In this document: piece by piece, positions 6,634-18,542 of the stretch
How positions within the stretch are numbered: position 1 is the stretch's first letter
Layout: the number at the start of each line of letters is the position of its first letter
Source of the DNA: Shigella phage vB_SboS_Gloob
Strand: one strand, 5' to 3'
Length of the DNA: 64,000 nucleotides
Sequence record: OL615011
Notes under the pieces: model-generated
Databases searched by the model: none
What the model was told of the DNA's origin: nothing
The model's input: the letters and a program-made list of their open reading frames with translations, nothing else
Position numbers and translations under genes: made by a program

Positions 6634-7146
6634 ATGCAATCCATGATCAAACGTAAAGTAGAAATCTCCCTGAATGCCCATGTTGAAATGATCCAGCAGC
6701 TTGTGTCTGACGCATATGAGGTACAAAAGGATCGCCAATCGAAGGGAGGCGTGATGGACCCCACCTGTCCCGGAAACATACTACACTATCGCATGCTGCG
6801 CTGGACTGGGCATACGGCTGCTCTGAAGAAACTGCTTTCTAAAAGATTCCAGGCCGAAAACGATGCCTATGTGTTTGGCGTCTTCCATAATTCGCGTGAA
6901 CGCGATGCGCTCTTCTATCCTTCCCGCAACCCAAAGACAGGCGAAGAACTGCCTATCCCTGATGTCGACAAGGAAGAGAGCACGGCCACCATCGCCCATT
7001 TCATGGGCACGAATATCGATAAAGCAAACATCATCGTGTTCTCTGATACACTTCATGATCCGAAACGCTTGGCTGCCGCCCATGAAATGTTGCGCAATAG
7101 CCGCAGTGCTTTCACAAATTTGACTTTAGTAGTGTTTCTGGGCTAG
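6634..7146 (+). CDS. hypothetical protein
   Basis: 170-aa ORF; TATAAT-like box about 45 nt upstream. Confidence 0.55.
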   Translation: MQSMIKRKVEISLNAHVEMIQQLVSDAYEVQKDRQSKGGVMDPTCPGNILHYRMLRWTGHTAALKKLLSKRFQAENDAYVFGVFHNSRERDALFYPSRNPKTGEELPIPDVDKEESTATIAHFMGTNIDKANIIVFSDTLHDPKRLAAAHEMLRNSRSAFTNLTLVVFLG

Positions 7147-7195
7147 ATAGTTACAGGGGAGGAAACTCCCCTATTTCCCTAACAGGAGGCGCACA

Positions 7196-7393
7196 ATGTA
7201 CAAGTTCAGAATTAACAGAGAACGTAATTCGTTCAAGTTCGGTGTAGTCGCTGGAGTTTGTTTGTTCCTGGCGCTCGAAAGCGTTGTCAGCCTGCTTACA
7301 ACATCACAAATGCAGGTGACTCGTTACCTACTTGCCATTATATTTTCTGCTGTCGGTTTACTCTGCTCCTATTTGGGGTGTGTGAAGAAATAA
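7196..7393 (+). CDS. small membrane protein (two predicted TM helices)
   Basis: AGGAGG RBS; hydrophobic segments VVAGVCLFLALESVV and LLAIIFSAVGLLCSYL. Confidence 0.55.
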   Translation: MYKFRINRERNSFKFGVVAGVCLFLALESVVSLLTTSQMQVTRYLLAIIFSAVGLLCSYLGCVKK

Positions 7394-7435
7394 ACTGGCT
7401 GCACACAGCAATACTTTGATTTGAGAAACTACATC

Positions 7436-13354: not shown

Positions 13355-13597
13355 ATGAACCCAGAATTTGAAAACCTGTTTGAGCGTTGCTTCGAGCCTG
13401 CGTCTGTTGCGGGTTACATGGACCGCCTCAGTAAAGAGATCATTGTCCGTCTGGCGGCGAAGGGTATCCATGTTGGTACGCTCGTGCGCAACGGTGACAA
13501 CTTCATCATACAGATGTCCGACTGTCGTCATCGTTCTGGCATCTTCTACGTTAAATGCATTGACAACAGCATTATTGAATGGAGACAGTACGCATGA
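13355..13597 (+). CDS. hypothetical protein
   Basis: 80-aa ORF; stop overlaps next start (ATGA). Confidence 0.5.
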   Translation: MNPEFENLFERCFEPASVAGYMDRLSKEIIVRLAAKGIHVGTLVRNGDNFIIQMSDCRHRSGIFYVKCIDNSIIEWRQYA

Positions 13598-14193
13598 CCA
13601 CATATGTAATCAACGGCGGTGATTTACTGAAAGCCGCCTGTAGTTTCAACCTGATCGACATCTTCGCCCATGGTGCCAACTGCTGGTCTACCATGGGTGC
13701 GGGTATTGCTCTGCATATCGGCAACATCTTCCCCGCCCTGCGTGAAGCCGATGCGAACGACCCTCGTGGTCCAGAGCAACGCCTGGGTGGCATGTCCTAT
13801 GCATTTGACCACAGCAAGGGCGTTTGGGGTGCGAACCTCTACACTCAGTTTTATCCAGGTCCGAATGCCCGCATGCCGTCTGTCATCAGTTCTGTTCAGA
13901 CCCTGTTTGAGCAGGTTCACGAAATTGTGGAAGCAACTAAAGACGAAACTGTCTATGTCGGCCTGCCTGCTATCGGCTGTGGTATTGGTGGTCTGAACCT
14001 CTACAGCGTAGTGCGCCATATTAACCGGATCGCTGAAAGCGTGTATGAAGAGACCCGCCGTCGTGTCGTCCCAGTCTTCTATATCAGGGAAGGAGACGGA
14101 TTCGATGATGACATGATGGAACTTTCTCATCTGGACGCAGAAGGTATCATGATTGTCAAAGATGAGCAAGAAATCATCGACGAGGAGGCGTGA
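13594..14193 (+). CDS. macro domain protein (ADP-ribose binding/hydrolase fold)
   Basis: INGGDLLKA...DIFAHGANCWSTMGAGIALHI matches macro-domain N-terminal signature; later GIGG motif. Confidence 0.65.
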   Translation: MTTYVINGGDLLKAACSFNLIDIFAHGANCWSTMGAGIALHIGNIFPALREADANDPRGPEQRLGGMSYAFDHSKGVWGANLYTQFYPGPNARMPSVISSVQTLFEQVHEIVEATKDETVYVGLPAIGCGIGGLNLYSVVRHINRIAESVYEETRRRVVPVFYIREGDGFDDDMMELSHLDAEGIMIVKDEQEIIDEEA

Positions 14194-14825
14194 TGTACAA
14201 GTCTAATTTCTTGGCTGTGGCTGATAGCGAGACTCTGGGGCGCTGGGATGATGCTGTGATGTTATCCTGGGCACAGACTATCGCTGATCTGACAAAGCGT
14301 TATACTCTTCAGCAGCTGGTTGAGGAGCGCACGACGTTCATCAAGCTGAATGTCAAAGAGCAGATCGAACTCGGTCGCGTGAAGGACCAGGGGACGGTAG
14401 AATGGTGGTTGGGGACGGGTAAACGTAACCCGTGTGATGCGGCTCGCGCCGTCAGTCTGTACCCGACTGAGCAGGACATCTCTATCTTCCAATTGGCAGA
14501 CGAAATCCGCAAGGGTTGTCATCGTCTTGGGGTAGACCCGCGCTCGGTTGACTGGTGTGACCGTAACTTGTTCGATCTGCGCAAGGCTCAGCACACCATT
14601 GAGGTGACGTGTAAGCAGGACTCCAACGAGCCATGGGATTACCACCACACCTTCGACATCGTGAGCTGGCTGAAGGGTGTCGGGCAACAGGATCGCTACG
14701 CTGGCATCAAGGCGTGGGAACTGGAAGGCATGGTCTATCATGATCCTCGTTATGACGCCGCGCTTGATTGGCTTCGCATTCAAAAGACTATGGAAGACCT
14801 GATGGGTCTGGAGGTGGTAGGATGA
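14190..14825 (+). CDS. dexA: DexA-like 3'-5' exonuclease (DEDD family)
   Basis: Exo I motif AVADSETLG; TVEWWLG and C-terminal region resemble T4 exonuclease A as recalled. Confidence 0.7.
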   Translation: MMYKSNFLAVADSETLGRWDDAVMLSWAQTIADLTKRYTLQQLVEERTTFIKLNVKEQIELGRVKDQGTVEWWLGTGKRNPCDAARAVSLYPTEQDISIFQLADEIRKGCHRLGVDPRSVDWCDRNLFDLRKAQHTIEVTCKQDSNEPWDYHHTFDIVSWLKGVGQQDRYAGIKAWELEGMVYHDPRYDAALDWLRIQKTMEDLMGLEVVG

Positions 14826-15127
14826 GCGCATTCTTCGAATTCGTCGGCGTCATAACAGTGACAGTATTCCTCGTGGTGACGTTGGGAGTTCTGTACTCCC
14901 TGTTTGTTCATCCAGCGTTCCAGGCCATCAGTATCATGCGCTGGATAACAGCTTGCTCCTTGTCGGTGGGTAACAAGCCGCCGACTCTGAAAGAGAGATG
15001 GAGTTTCTTCAAATGGGGATATGAAATCGGTGGTCCCAGAACAACCCGCTACTCTAACAACACCGGAGAATGGTGTGGGATAGGCCGATGGCAAGTATTC
15101 AAATCTGAAGAAGATGAAGCCCCGTGA
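14822..15127 (+). CDS. small membrane protein
   Basis: GGAGG RBS; TM helix VGVITVTVFLVVTLGVLYSLFV. Confidence 0.5.
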   Translation: MSAFFEFVGVITVTVFLVVTLGVLYSLFVHPAFQAISIMRWITACSLSVGNKPPTLKERWSFFKWGYEIGGPRTTRYSNNTGEWCGIGRWQVFKSEEDEAP

Positions 15128-15140
15128 GGGGCTTTTCTAT
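15118..15140 (+). terminator. rho-independent terminator
   Basis: gcccc-gtga-ggggc hairpin then TTTTCT; stop codon lies in the loop. Confidence 0.55.
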
Positions 15141-15169: not shown

Positions 15170-15403
15170 ATGAATCCTCGGGAAACTGCTATGACTACAG
15201 CAAGAAGTTACAGAAAGAACTTCAACATCGAAGGGATTGAGTTCTACCACCATTACGCCCAGGACACCCATGGCACTGTATGCAACACATACATGCTTGA
15301 CGGTCGCCCTGTAGGTTCCGATGAGTTCTATCGTGTTTTGCGCGAGTCTACAGAAGAATCCCTGTCTTACATTATCAATGCCAACGGATTGATTAAACCA
15401 TGA
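15170..15403 (+). CDS. hypothetical protein
   Basis: 77-aa ORF; start uncertain. Confidence 0.4.
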   Translation: MNPRETAMTTARSYRKNFNIEGIEFYHHYAQDTHGTVCNTYMLDGRPVGSDEFYRVLRESTEESLSYIINANGLIKP

Positions 15404-16086
15404 TCAACGTATCAATAAACGACCGAGATTTCGTCCACGCTGTTATGACAAACAACAAAGACCCTCTTGCGTACAACGGGGAGAAGGTTACTCTGTTCTG
15501 GTCAGGCGGCGTGGACAGCACGTACATGCTATTCTGGCTGTTGGCTCACGGGTACGAAGTTCACACGATCTACTGCGAACTGGAGAACAACTCCTTCAAG
15601 GTGAAGCGTGAGAACTGGTCGCGCAAGAAGATCAGGGAATGGGTGACCACAAATTCGCCGAGGTTGAACACTCATTGGCATCACAGAGAAACCCCGATCA
15701 GCAAAATGAGCATCCAGTCTGGTGAGTTCCGGCCTTGTCTGGCTCAAGCCCCTGTGTGGTTGGTGAACACCCAATTCGCGGGTGGCCATTTTGATCGAGG
15801 ACTGCCAAGAACTTATGTGATGGCATACGTCAACGGAGACGACGCTCTACACTGGATCCCTGCCTTCAACAAGATCGTGGAGGGTTATAACATGTTGGCC
15901 AAAGACGGGCATGAGATCACCGTTCTCTTCCCTCTCGCCAGCATGAAGAAGACATGGTTCTACGAAGCCTTGTCGCCAATCTACGGGCTGATGACCTGGT
16001 GTGAATATCTCGTTCTGAAAAAGAACTGTGAATGCCCCGCTTGTGTCCGCCACCGTCATGAACTTTCCGTGTTTGAGGGGAAATAA
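15400..16086 (+). CDS. QueC-like PP-loop ATPase (7-cyano-7-deazaguanine synthase family)
   Basis: PP-loop SGGVDS with flanking LFWSGGVDSTYML...GYEVHTIY; C-terminal C-x8-C-x-C-x2-C-x-R cluster like the QueC zinc site. Confidence 0.65.
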   Translation: MINVSINDRDFVHAVMTNNKDPLAYNGEKVTLFWSGGVDSTYMLFWLLAHGYEVHTIYCELENNSFKVKRENWSRKKIREWVTTNSPRLNTHWHHRETPISKMSIQSGEFRPCLAQAPVWLVNTQFAGGHFDRGLPRTYVMAYVNGDDALHWIPAFNKIVEGYNMLAKDGHEITVLFPLASMKKTWFYEALSPIYGLMTWCEYLVLKKNCECPACVRHRHELSVFEGK

Positions 16087-16427
16087 TGAAACCGTCTGTT
16101 GTGGTGAACGACATCACTATGTTGATAAACCTCGTCAAGGATGTGTTTCCACAACAGGTGGATGTCGAGTATGTTGGGAAGAACGGGAAGTGCTATCAGG
16201 TTGCTCTGTTGTTGAAGCACGTGTACCCTCAAGCAGAGATCCATTACAGTCAGATTGAAGGTCATGTGTACACTCTGATTGATGGGAACTATTACGACAT
16301 CGACGGCATCCAATTCAGTGTCCCACCGGACACGTGTTTGCTCGAACACAATAGAGGCCACAAACCACATCGCTGGCATAAAGGATTTGTGAACGTACCG
16401 ATTTTAGAATGGTTGAGGAGACCATAA
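16086..16427 (+). CDS. hypothetical protein
   Basis: GAGGGG RBS; TAATG overlap with upstream stop. Confidence 0.55.
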
Positions 16428-17083
16428 TGGCAGGAATTGTGAAGTATCTGGGAGACACCCACCTTGGGCACAAGAAGATCTTCAAGCCCCGTGGGTTCGA
16501 CACACAGGAAGCCCACGACGCTGCGGTCATTGACAGTATCTTCCAGGGACTGAAGTCCCGAGACGTCCTTGAACTGGCAGGAGACATCTGCTTCATCGGG
16601 GCTGAGGGGTTCATTCGCCTGATGCGCGAGGGTGCCAAGCGGAACATTGATGAGTTCAAGCGCCGCCCGGTTCCCGATGATTGGCGTCCGAACTTTATCA
16701 TCAGGGTGGCGCAAGGCAACCATGACAGCTTCAAGATGCTGATGGCTCTGTATATCGACGGCTGGATTAGTTCCTTCGGTGCCATGTATGAGCGTGACAC
16801 TCCGGTCGGTCGTGTGTTGACCACTCACGTTCCTTATCAATTAGACCGCTGGGCGTATAATATCCATGGTCATCTTCACGGTGAAATGCGTGAAGAACGT
16901 GAATACCTGAACTGCAGCTGGGAACAATTCAAGCGCCCTGTGACATTGGCCGAGCTGCTCTATACCAATCTGGGGATTGAAATTTTCCTGGTCAGAAAGT
17001 GCCTTCTGAAGTGGAGAAGGTGGAGTTCACGGGTTATCGGGGAGGAGATCCCAACTTGCGTTTCTCCTCTCCTTGTATCGTGA
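16427..17083 (+). CDS. calcineurin-like metallophosphoesterase (putative)
   Basis: GDTHLGH and GNHD metal-binding motifs. Confidence 0.6.
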
Positions 17084-17285
17084 AAAGAACAGAAACGGGC
17101 TATTACGTCAGACCAATCGTATTGATGGGCAGCGTGATGACATTAAGAGCAACCGCCGACCATGTTTCTATACAAGGCAGCCCAGAGATTACATGTGGGA
17201 TAACCCACATGAACTGCAAGCCGATTATCCCGACATGGTTGATTATTGGTGTGCTTTCTGTTTTGGCTCTGAAAGGGGTATTGTT

Positions 17286-17624
17286 ATGAAAAAGCCGCGC
17301 ATCACAGGACACCAACTCTCGGTTCTCTACGGGATAGAGAACTTTGAGAAAGGTCATCGCCGTTATGGTGAACGGTACTTGCATCCCAAATCCTGGGCCA
17401 ATGACAAGGGCAACACCGTCTGGACGTTCCAGGTATGCCCGAACGCTGGTGGTTTCACCTCCGTCAAAGGCGATCCATGGGACACCCGCACAGGGGCTTC
17501 CCTGCTCGCCAAGGGGTTGATCGAACCAGCTGGCTCAATGGTTCATGACGGTTCGTACGTGAACTGGCCGAACACTGAGGTGACGTTCTACCGCCTGACT
17601 GAACTCGGTAAGTCTTATCTCTGA
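17286..17624 (+). CDS. hypothetical protein
   Basis: internal ATG (MKKPRITG) of 183-aa track ORF with AGGGG RBS; hairpin plus T-rich run downstream. Confidence 0.5.
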   Translation: MKKPRITGHQLSVLYGIENFEKGHRRYGERYLHPKSWANDKGNTVWTFQVCPNAGGFTSVKGDPWDTRTGASLLAKGLIEPAGSMVHDGSYVNWPNTEVTFYRLTELGKSYL

Positions 17625-17694
17625 ATAAAGATTCAGCGGTTATTGAAGAAGGGGGAGTATATACTTCCCCTTAGTTTATTAAGAGGAACCGGAA

Positions 17695-18036
17695 ATGACC
17701 CCATTAAAAGAAATGTATGAGCGCCTGGCTGAACTGCAGGCGAAGGAAAAGCGCTTCTCGGAAGAAGAGACAGAGCTGTCCGAGCTGAACACTTTGATCG
17801 CCACTCGCGAGAAGTACCTCCAGCGCTACATCAACCATCCTCCCCACATGGTGGAGCGTGTGTCTGAAGCGATCATGCCGTTTGCTGGGCGTGAGTTTAA
17901 TGAGCAAACTCGTGAAGAGATACTCAAAGTCATCGTAGCAGAAGTCCATTCCATGGTCTCCCTCGGCCAGATCTTTGGCCGCGCAGACCAGGAGGACATG
18001 ATCTTCCTTCTGAACAAGAATGTGGTGGTGAAATAA
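17695..18036 (+). CDS. hypothetical protein
   Basis: AAGAGGAA RBS; 113-aa ORF. Confidence 0.55.
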   Translation: MTPLKEMYERLAELQAKEKRFSEEETELSELNTLIATREKYLQRYINHPPHMVERVSEAIMPFAGREFNEQTREEILKVIVAEVHSMVSLGQIFGRADQEDMIFLLNKNVVVK

Positions 18037-18542
18037 TGTCCATCAAGCCCCGTATGATGTTTGCGCACATGCGCTCGGCTCATGCATATGCACTGTCCAG
18101 CTATGCTCGGCGCCTGAAGGTCGGCTGTGTTATCGTTGATGAACAGACCGACCAACCTGTTGCCATCGGTTGGAACGGGACTGCTCCTGGCGCTCCTAAT
18201 GTCTGTGAGCAGGAAGTAGACGGTGAGTTGGTATCAGTCGGGGTTGTCCACGCAGAAGAGAACGCTTTGATGCGCATCCCTGAAGCATTGGACAACCGCG
18301 TTGATCTGACGATGTTCGTCTCACACAGCCCATGCCCTGTTTGTACTCAGCTGATAATCAAAAGCTGCGCTATCAAGAAGGTCATCTACAATATACCGTA
18401 CCGAATCACAGACGGCATTATTGAAATGCTGGCTGCTGGAATTGAAGTATATCGCATGGTCGATCAGTATGCTGTAGTCCAGCATTCTGTGAAGAACGGC
18501 GAACTGGTATCCACCCCTGTTTTAGTGAACCCTGACAAGTAA
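18036..18542 (+). CDS. dCMP deaminase (cytidine/deoxycytidylate deaminase family)
   Basis: zinc-binding motifs HAEENAL and SPCPVC. Confidence 0.8.
   Translation: MSIKPRMMFAHMRSAHAYALSSYARRLKVGCVIVDEQTDQPVAIGWNGTAPGAPNVCEQEVDGELVSVGVVHAEENALMRIPEALDNRVDLTMFVSHSPCPVCTQLIIKSCAIKKVIYNIPYRITDGIIEMLAAGIEVYRMVDQYAVVQHSVKNGELVSTPVLVNPDK

Follow-up and report, generated by a model that had tools for sequence, protein, structure and literature searches.

A diverged QueC-family protein of an Agtrevirus-type phage that appears to have lost its deazaguanine-binding residues

The 64,000-nucleotide stretch of Shigella phage vB_SboS_Gloob (sequence record OL615011) analysed here, called the window, carries on its plus strand at 15400-16086 a gene with an ATG start for a QueC-like PP-loop ATP pyrophosphatase of 228 aa, which belongs to a divergent branch of PF06508. 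QueC makes preQ0 for 7-deazaguanine modifications, and a sequence-only reading of this DNA allowed two roles for the phage protein: a supplier of preQ0, or a QueC-derived enzyme with a new function. Our analysis keeps the family and sets the preQ0 supplier aside: the protein is very probably a member of the QueC family that is not a preQ0 synthase, given its loss of motifs, its score against the TIGR00364 equivalog and the lack of pathway partners. The overall reading that we favour, at a probability of roughly 60%, is an ATP-dependent adenylating ligase of the QueC family that would act on a substrate other than a deazaguanine.

Family membership and the QueC signature

By its sequence, the window comes from an Agtrevirus-type phage of the Ackermannviridae: Shigella phage ChubbyThor matches the 13.5-18.6 kb part of the window at 95.4% identity over 100% of its length, and other Agtrevirus and Kuttervirus genomes match the same part at 88-97%. 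The QueC-like protein is 100% identical to ChubbyThor gp63, labelled there as a 'putative alpha hydrophase'. Conservation was assessed in two sets, A1 (19 close homologues at 53-92% identity) and A2 (the profile of a 65-member family). All 19 close homologues align over the full length, with SGGxDS and all four cysteines invariant, and their profile reaches 474 clusters (50% identity) at E<1e-10, in matches spanning nearly the whole domain; because of this conservation, we regard the open reading frame (ORF) as a real gene and its motifs as not due to chance. In phage Sajous1, mass spectrometry has detected one peptide of the Kuttervirus homologue (PMC10892097). At the N-terminus of the Ackermannviridae copies, a helix is modelled with confidence at residues 6-16, V12 and V15 being invariant in it (residues 1-27 correspond to 15400-15480); most other family members begin at about residue 26-30 and lack this helix.

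String searches located the three motifs picked out by the sequence-only reading: the pyrophosphate-binding PP-loop SGGVDS (residues 35-40, 15502-15519, plus strand), GYEVH (residues 51-55), and the C-terminal C-x8-C-x-C-x2-C-x-R cluster formed by C201, C210, C212, C215 and then R217, CEYLVLKKNCECPACVR (residues 201-217, 16000-16050, plus strand). Across the 65 members of A2, G37, D39 and S40 of the PP-loop are invariant and S35 and G36 nearly so. Single-sequence searches reach the PP-loop only: Pfam QueC (PF06508) scores 28.1 bits against a gathering score of 22, over residues 32-80, and phmmer returned nothing significant for the protein, either in the PDB or in a comparison with E. coli QueC. 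The A2 profile reaches further, matching B. subtilis QueC (3BL5, 2.9e-10), Cap9 (9NTO, 3.5e-9) and QueC 2PG3 (2.9e-8) in the PDB, each in two stretches that comprise the PP-loop and a C-terminal 'PL..K ... C ... CGxCxxC'; other PP-loop families match A2 at the N-terminus only, and more weakly than 1e-3. By hhalign, the family aligns with E. coli QueC at 94.8% probability over 182 columns, and at 96.5% over 193 columns with a small enterobacterial QueC profile, which holds sequences at least 80% identical to E. coli QueC and hence has little depth. All 65 sampled relatives match phrog_1550, and 61 of the 65 match Pfam QueC. The fold is of the QueC/Cap9 type, with Foldseek TM-scores of 0.52-0.53 to Cap9 and QueC; a fold search of BFVD yielded nothing but phage homologues bearing propagated QueC names. 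The profile and fold comparisons therefore identify the protein as a highly diverged member of the QueC superfamily (PF06508), nearest to Cap9 and QueC. Thus the comparison of PP-loop families that the earlier reading called for came out in favour of QueC and Cap9, with no better match outside them, and the zinc site that it had recognised was borne out by the alignment of the four cysteines with the QueC zinc ligands.

As described by Libby et al. 2026 (PMC13329287), the canonical QueC signature consists of SGGxDS, YxQxHxxE, VPxRN, YPDC, K165 and C(x)8CxxCxxC, and mutagenesis of E. coli QueC found Y35, R99, Y131 and Y189 to be essential. In the Cap9-CdnD structure (bioRxiv 10.1101/2025.04.06.647259), the Y of YxDC and the R of RN stack on either side of the deazaguanine, to which the D of YxDC forms a hydrogen bond. 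The phage protein has SGGxDS and the motif of a putative zinc site (C-x8-C-x-C-x2-C here, CGxCxxC in the wider family), and none of YxQxHxxE, VPxRN, YPDC and Y189. Residues were mapped in two independently built profile alignments, which agree unless stated. Canonical Y35 falls on L61 (I/L in the family), Q37 on N63, H39 on a deletion or V68, E42 on S65 or E71 depending on the alignment, R99 on Q116 (at least 90% conserved in the family), N100 on A117, Y131 on W152 (Y in the family), K165 on K184, and Y189 on E202 (at least 90% conserved in the family, beside the first zinc ligand); C188/C197/C200/C203 fall on C201/C210/C212/C215. P132-D133-C134 is met by a three-residue gap: YVNGDDA (residues 143-149, 15826-15846, plus strand) replaces the canonical substrate loop ...TDFSGYPDC, with PDC deleted. 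All seven residues of this motif (Y143, V144, N145, G146, D147, D148 and A149) are invariant in A1, and D147 is so in A2 as well; in the AlphaFold2 (AF2) model a helix begins at residue 147 and runs to 166, so that W152 lies inside it. The family-specific pair N63-N64 (15586-15591, plus strand), at least 90% conserved in A2, includes the residue aligned with Q37 of YxQxHxxE.

By this count, three of the four essential QueC residues (Y35, R99 and Y189) are replaced, and of the three side chains through which Cap9 contacts the base, two are absent. The TIGR00364 equivalog scores 18.8 bits against a cutoff of 150.3, over residues 33-58 only. The family instead has an active-site signature of its own: NN, Q in place of R99, GYVMNDDA, and WCE...CGxCxxCxR. 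Judged by its sequence, the protein fails the canonical QueC signature and appears to have lost the residues that hold 7-carboxy-7-deazaguanine (CDG), and the loss of these side chains argues against a preQ0 synthase and leaves no sign of 7-deazaguanine DNA. With QueC (PF06508 cluster 1; TIGR00364; PDB 3BL5, 2PG3), the protein shares fold, domain order, a length of about 220 aa, SGGxDS, the lysine K165/K184, a C-terminal Cys4 in the same register, and full-length profile homology; it differs in that Y35, H39, R99, N100, P132-D133-C134 and Y189 are replaced or missing, in the zinc spacing (C-x-C here, C-x2-C in QueC), and in having no queD, queE or folE neighbours.

A genuine preQ0 synthase, which would convert host CDG to preQ0 at the cost of two ATP and with ammonia, for tRNA queuosine or, via an unrecognised transglycosylase, for 7-deazaguanine DNA, is nonetheless an alternative to be weighed. 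The score above the Pfam QueC gathering threshold, the retention of the zinc-site cysteines, PP-loop and K165, and the conservative nature of Q37 to N and Y131 to W/Y all favour it, and CDG is a product of enterobacterial hosts, queD and queE being found in E. coli. Against these stand the replacement of Y35, R99 and Y189, which are essential in QueC (PMC13329287), the deletion of PDC from YPDC, and the TIGR00364 score. Together with the pathway, chemical and genomic evidence given below, these make a preQ0 synthase highly unlikely.

Pathway partners, DNA chemistry and distribution

Canonical QueC would be expected in genomic association with queD, queE, folE and tgt/dpdA, and no such association was found. 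E. coli FolE, QueD, QueE, Tgt and QueA, compared with the window and with the whole genome of the related Agtrevirus EspM4VN, gave a best phmmer E of about 0.3 (FolE) and a best tblastn E of 0.85, the latter search being sensitive only to recognisable homologues of the E. coli proteins; a PHROG-style annotation of the complete EspM4VN genome likewise contains no FolE, QueD, QueE, Tgt or QueA gene. The absence of FolE, QueD, QueE and TGT genes from the window, as reported by the sequence-only reading, was thus confirmed, and the wider search that it proposed found no pathway homologues in the complete genome of this relative. Neither the window nor the EspM4VN genome has a FolE, QueD, QueE, Tgt or DpdA gene, which counts against preQ0 synthesis, and 84 viral loci (1.37 Mb in total) contain no FolE, QueD, QueE, Tgt or QueA homologue up to 10 kb from the QueC-like gene. 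EspM4VN encodes tRNA-Tyr and tRNA-Asn, both of them Q-family tRNAs, which speaks for the preQ0 alternative; no tRNA genes are present in the window, which speaks against it.

The DNA of Ackermannviridae carries a thymidine derivative, 5-NeOmdU (PMC5889632; see also bioRxiv 10.64898/2026.05.19.726188). Liquid chromatography-mass spectrometry (LC-MS) of the nucleosides of ViI and CBA120 gave the four canonical peaks and one fifth peak, 5-NeOmdU (PMC5889632), and ViI encodes a homologue of the QueC-like gene (H119). The earlier suggestion that the gene serves 7-deazaguanine modification of DNA therefore fails at the level of major nucleosides, there being no deazapurine peak in the published LC-MS of ViI; that 5-NeOmdU is the sole extra peak in ViI DNA (PMC5889632) is a further point against a preQ0 synthase.

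Two uncultured phages carry both forms of the protein. The loci L019 (2522-3319 and 10103-10858) and L039 (3449-4162 and 10001-10567) each hold a canonical QueC and the divergent form about 7 kb apart, within one T4-like replication module. Their canonical QueC shares 30% identity with that of E. coli (E 1e-28) and has YGQKHxxE, VPNRN, YPDC and TCY...CGKCGSC intact; the divergent form instead reads NN, Q, GYVMNDDA and FCE...CGDCPAC. This coexistence argues for distinct functions, and the retention of a canonical QueC beside the divergent paralogue also speaks against preQ0 synthesis by the latter. Because phrog_1550 matches both the canonical phage QueC and the divergent form, the divergent form receives the label 'QueC-like queuosine biosynthesis'. 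Pipelines give the gene this label or even '7-cyano-7-deazaguanine synthase', and UniProt uses the latter name for two divergent family members, A0A1Y0T107 (Noxifer) and A0A0K2QQR9 (RSF1), probably as a propagated over-annotation. Given these labels and the lumping by phrog_1550, surveys of auxiliary metabolic genes and predictions of 7-deazaguanine DNA will over-call such phages; on this evidence, Ackermannviridae ought not to be counted among the phages that modify their DNA with deazaguanine.

That the gene exists and that its function is in doubt has been published before. Hutinet et al. 2019 (PMC6884629) included 20 Ackermannviridae among the phages identified and set aside QueC 'singletons', naming ECML-4 YP_009101458 and an SFP10 protein; these were judged likely to be a functionally unrelated subgroup of N-type ATP pyrophosphatases, and motifs, family size and context of the singletons were not analysed. 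That the singletons are unconnected to QueC in sequence similarity networks (PMC6884629) is another argument against a preQ0 synthase. ECML-4 YP_009101458 occupies the corresponding genomic position in Kuttervirus and is the homologue there (homologues in the same band align at 60-63%), and the singletons belong to the same protein family, of which the window holds the Agtrevirus-type copy. A 2026 survey of PF06508 (PMC13329287) does not describe the viral QueC-like group. What is new here is a residue-level reason against canonical QueC, the size of the family and its distribution on viral contigs only, the replication-module context, the coexistence with true QueC, and a natural deletion in phage Ag3.

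So far, this divergent QueC-like family has been seen only on viral contigs. IMG/VR contains 112 relatives, and a search of 185,579 species-representative bacterial and archaeal genomes with a single peptide pattern and tblastn confirmation, which is not exhaustive, found none. Among cultured phages, the carriers are most Ackermannviridae genera, except for Ag3-like Agtrevirus, and the jumbo phages RSF1, PS119XW, Noxifer and pVp-JHP1101; 20 Dickeya-phage records match the locus at the DNA level, yet are missing among the QueC-like protein matches. The C-terminal extensions of longer family members contain no informative Pfam domain, and the net charge and isoelectric point (pI) of the family are near neutral, which is uninformative as to nucleic-acid binding.

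For context, the neighbour genes of 66 IMG/VR loci were clustered, the clusters annotated and the helicase cluster refined. A SNF2-family helicase gene lies immediately 5' of the QueC-like gene at 40 of the 66 loci, a family-B DNA polymerase (PolB) gene directly 3' at 28 of them (start at a median of 8 nt), and a gp41-like helicase gene in the vicinity at 11; UvsX, FEN and Nudix genes also occur near the QueC-like gene in uncultured loci. A search for cultured relatives of the phages with the SNF2, QueC-like and PolB arrangement turned up only the PolB of a Salinibacter phage, 23% identical. The neighbours in cultured jumbo phages are mostly hypothetical.

One group of uncultured phages (L022 6442-8475; also L024, L025 and L026) has directly 3' of the QueC-like gene a gene for a 677-aa AAA-type ATPase, which appears to hold an intein (a Hint/LAGLIDADG-like insert). 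A phrog_1238 protein with a DFDGT motif recurs 0-3 kb from the QueC-like gene in several unrelated phages (L001 12482-12895; L083 2454-2915; L019 9728-10099; L071 about 7122-7400). This protein is small and HAD-like, and its product name 'phosphoheptose isomerase' looks like a misnomer; a link to the QueC-like gene was considered and rejected, the protein being absent from the window and present in Ag3, which has no QueC-like gene.

Candidate reaction and rival explanations

The QueC chassis kept in the phage protein consists of the PP-loop, the acidic D147/D148 after strand 4, K184, and the Cys4 aligned to the QueC zinc ligands. An adenylating ligase built on it would bind ATP and pyrophosphate at the SGGxDS loop and, judging from QueC, Cap9 and QatC, would use ATP to adenylate the carboxyl (or carbonyl) group of a substrate other than CDG, with release of pyrophosphate; ammonia or a larger amine would then displace AMP to give an amide. 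CDG itself would not be held in the canonical way. The 'CE' beside the first zinc ligand is common to Cap9, whose nucleophile is the amine of a protein N-terminus and not ammonia, and hints at a ligase over a nitrile synthase. This reaction type, an acyl-adenylate from which an amine displaces AMP, is drawn by analogy and we put it forward tentatively, at somewhat less than even odds. The substrate would most likely be a nucleotide, a nucleobase, or a nucleic-acid- or replication-associated molecule, because the gene stands in replication modules elsewhere and near dexA, topoisomerase and dCMP deaminase genes here.

Several points weigh against this reading. For the central part of the protein, residues were mapped by profile alignment at low confidence, and the two alignments conflict on whether E71 corresponds to canonical E42. 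Some active-site positions may be conservatively retained (Q37 as N63, Y131 as W152 or the family's Y, K165 as K184, and possibly E42 as E71), and given these, binding of a related purine-like carboxylate is possible. Trace amounts of 7-deazaguanine in DNA or tRNA would escape detection as a peak in high-performance liquid chromatography (HPLC). The loci with replication modules probably represent one or two uncultured lineages and are not independent, and this context fails in the Ackermannviridae and cultured jumbo phages examined. Finally, the reaction type is an extrapolation from related enzymes.

The QueC scaffold has been repurposed before. QatC, a QueC-family member in which substrate motifs are remodelled while SGGxDS and the Cys cluster are kept (PMC13329287), provides a precedent for such repurposing; it differs from the phage protein in its length of about 400 aa (228 aa here), its extensions at both termini and a motif set of its own, and the QueC-like gene has no PADLOC match to QatC and no QatA, QatB or QatD neighbours. 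Cap9, the protein deazaguanylase of type IV CBASS (cyclic oligonucleotide-based antiphage signalling system; PDB 9NTO), shares with the phage protein the Glu after the first zinc Cys ('CE'). It keeps Y/FxQ(x)5E, RN and YxDC for deazaguanine, which the QueC-like protein does not, and it belongs to host defence in a context of CD-NTase, Cap10 (TGT-like) and Cap11, whereas the QueC-like protein is phage-encoded and has macro/Tk.4, DexA, p77, YunG-like, phosphoesterase and dCMP deaminase neighbours, with no Tgt-like sequence in the window. These comparisons bear on a rival in which, as in Cap9 or QatC, a carboxylated nucleobase or other acid is ligated to a protein, at its N-terminus or at a lysine; the protein could be the phage's or the host's, and the role counter-defence or host takeover. 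Although the shared 'CE' and the QatC precedent are in its favour, the Cap9 base-binding motifs RN and YxDC are lost, no CD-NTase, Cap10/TGT, QatA, QatB or QatD-like neighbour is present, and there is no conserved partner, the small proteins p77, p98 and p120 being non-homologous with no common feature at their N-termini. We consider this rival unlikely.

Another possibility is a base modifier of the TilS, ThiI, TtuA or DndC kind, which would adenylate a carbonyl of a base or a group of the backbone in tRNA or DNA, with amination or thiolation to follow. The PP-loop is common ground, and matches of the family to such proteins extend over it only, at E of 0.009 or higher (0.016 for TtuA/TtcA/NcsA). 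TM-scores to TtuA are 0.43-0.49, as opposed to 0.52-0.53 for Cap9 and QueC. TtuA, TtcA and NcsA have a three-Cys [4Fe-4S] site and flanking zinc fingers, whereas the conserved cysteines here are the Cys4 only, with no catalytic Cys or three-Cys Fe-S site beyond this QueC-type cluster. Nor is there an RNA-binding domain (THUMP or TilS C-terminal domain) or a neighbouring gene for a cysteine desulfurase or a sulfur carrier, and the family pI is near neutral; a base modifier is thus quite unlikely as well.

The QueC-family adenylating ligase therefore remains our preferred reading. In its boldest form, which would be new chemistry for viruses and which we rate as rather doubtful, the enzyme would use ATP to ligate a non-deazaguanine carboxylate to an amine, be it that of replicating DNA, of a nucleotide, or of a protein from the replication machinery or the host; if true, this would be a new DNA or protein modification used in phage replication or counter-defence. 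With hundreds of clusters, the PP-loop kept, and many members in replication modules, the divergent family is a well-defined candidate for one more case, following Cap9 and QatC, of a QueC scaffold put to new use.

The Ackermannviridae locus and its neighbours

On the plus strand, the genes of the locus run from a topoisomerase II subunit and several small ORFs through a macro-domain 'Tk.4' protein (13579-14193), the exonuclease DexA (14190-14825), a membrane ORF, and p77, a 77-aa ORF (15170-15403; phrog_16682, function unknown), to the QueC-like gene; a Phage_YunG-like protein of 113 aa (16086-16427; PF24591 7e-43; phrog_4814), a metallophosphoesterase-like protein (16409-17083; phrog_547 2.3e-44), two ORFs without assignment, and dCMP deaminase (18036-18542) follow. 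The stop codon of p77 overlaps the start of the QueC-like gene (ATGA). Upstream coupled small ORFs were considered as encoding a conserved partner protein and rejected, p77, its Kuttervirus counterpart p98 and p120 of uncultured phages being unrelated (hhalign <1%). A GC-rich hairpin with a T-rich tail (AAGCCCC-GTGA-GGGGCTT, 15117-15134, assigned to the minus strand by the hairpin scan) lies just 5' of p77, and another (17649-17672, plus strand) lies downstream. Five co-oriented genes lie between them (p77, QueC-like, YunG-like, phosphoesterase, and an ORF ending at 17624); they may constitute one transcription unit, with 15117-15134 possibly marking its start and 17649-17672 its end. The stop codon (15125-15127) of the ORF upstream of p77 sits in the loop of the first hairpin.

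A natural deletion indicates the status of the gene. Phage Ag3 has a clean deletion of 902 bp, equivalent to 15184-16085 of the window (junction L084 2186-2193), that takes p77 from codon 6 onward and the entire QueC-like gene; the first 14 nt of p77 (ATG AAT CCT CGG GA) remain, fused ahead of the YunG-like gene, which is kept. Therefore p77 and the QueC-like gene are dispensable for a viable phage and behave as a unit, and the QueC-like gene is accessory in the Ackermannviridae. Between Agtrevirus and Kuttervirus, the QueC-like protein is about 62% identical, compared with 94-96% for DexA, 80-95% for the YunG-like protein (91-95% in most loci) and 83-87% for the phosphoesterase; this low identity relative to the flanks is compatible with faster evolution or with exchange. 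The Tk.4-like protein, at 73% identity between the genera, is more diverged than DexA, too. It has a weak macro-domain match in Pfam (E 0.011) and a strong match to phrog_335 'phosphatase', and is labelled as ADP-ribose binding in ChubbyThor.

As the sequence-only reading had it, the second gene downstream of the QueC-like gene encodes a phosphoesterase with GDTHLGH and GNHD, as ORF order and string searches agree; GDTHLGH occupies residues 15-21, GNHD 103-106, and GHLH, a third metallophosphoesterase motif, 154-157. The protein has no Pfam Metallophos match at E<=0.1 and no sequence match in the PDB; it matches PdeM weakly, and its relatives are labelled as T5-like Ser/Thr phosphatase. Could it form a functional pair with the QueC-like enzyme, for example by phosphoester hydrolysis after adenylation? 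The two genes point in the same direction, are separated by less than 350 nt, lie between the same two hairpins, and keep their order in Kuttervirus, Agtrevirus and Taipeivirus-like genomes. This synteny, however, comes from related genomes and not from independent co-occurrence, and Ag3 retains the phosphoesterase despite the precise deletion of the QueC-like gene. Outside the Ackermannviridae, no viral locus has a phosphoesterase gene beside the QueC-like gene, and the sole match there (L075) is marginal (E 5.7e-4) and about 7 kb away. The Ag3 deletion largely refutes such a pair, which is extremely unlikely; given Ag3 and the absence beside the gene elsewhere, the adjacency is therefore synteny and no evidence of a shared pathway.

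The last 32 residues of the phosphoesterase ORF (beyond 16981) have no counterpart in Ag3, and the tail of this ORF is overlapped by the 5' part of the mechanically called ORF at 17073-17624 (183 aa). The match of the latter to phrog_4677 begins only at residue 72, and its true start is probably the ATG near 17286. Outside the stretch homologous to the window, the EspM4VN genome (L088 12754-15269) has adjoining genes labelled 'ribose-phosphate pyrophosphokinase' and 'nicotinamide phosphoribosyl transferase', which we take to resemble a phage NAD+ reconstitution pair.

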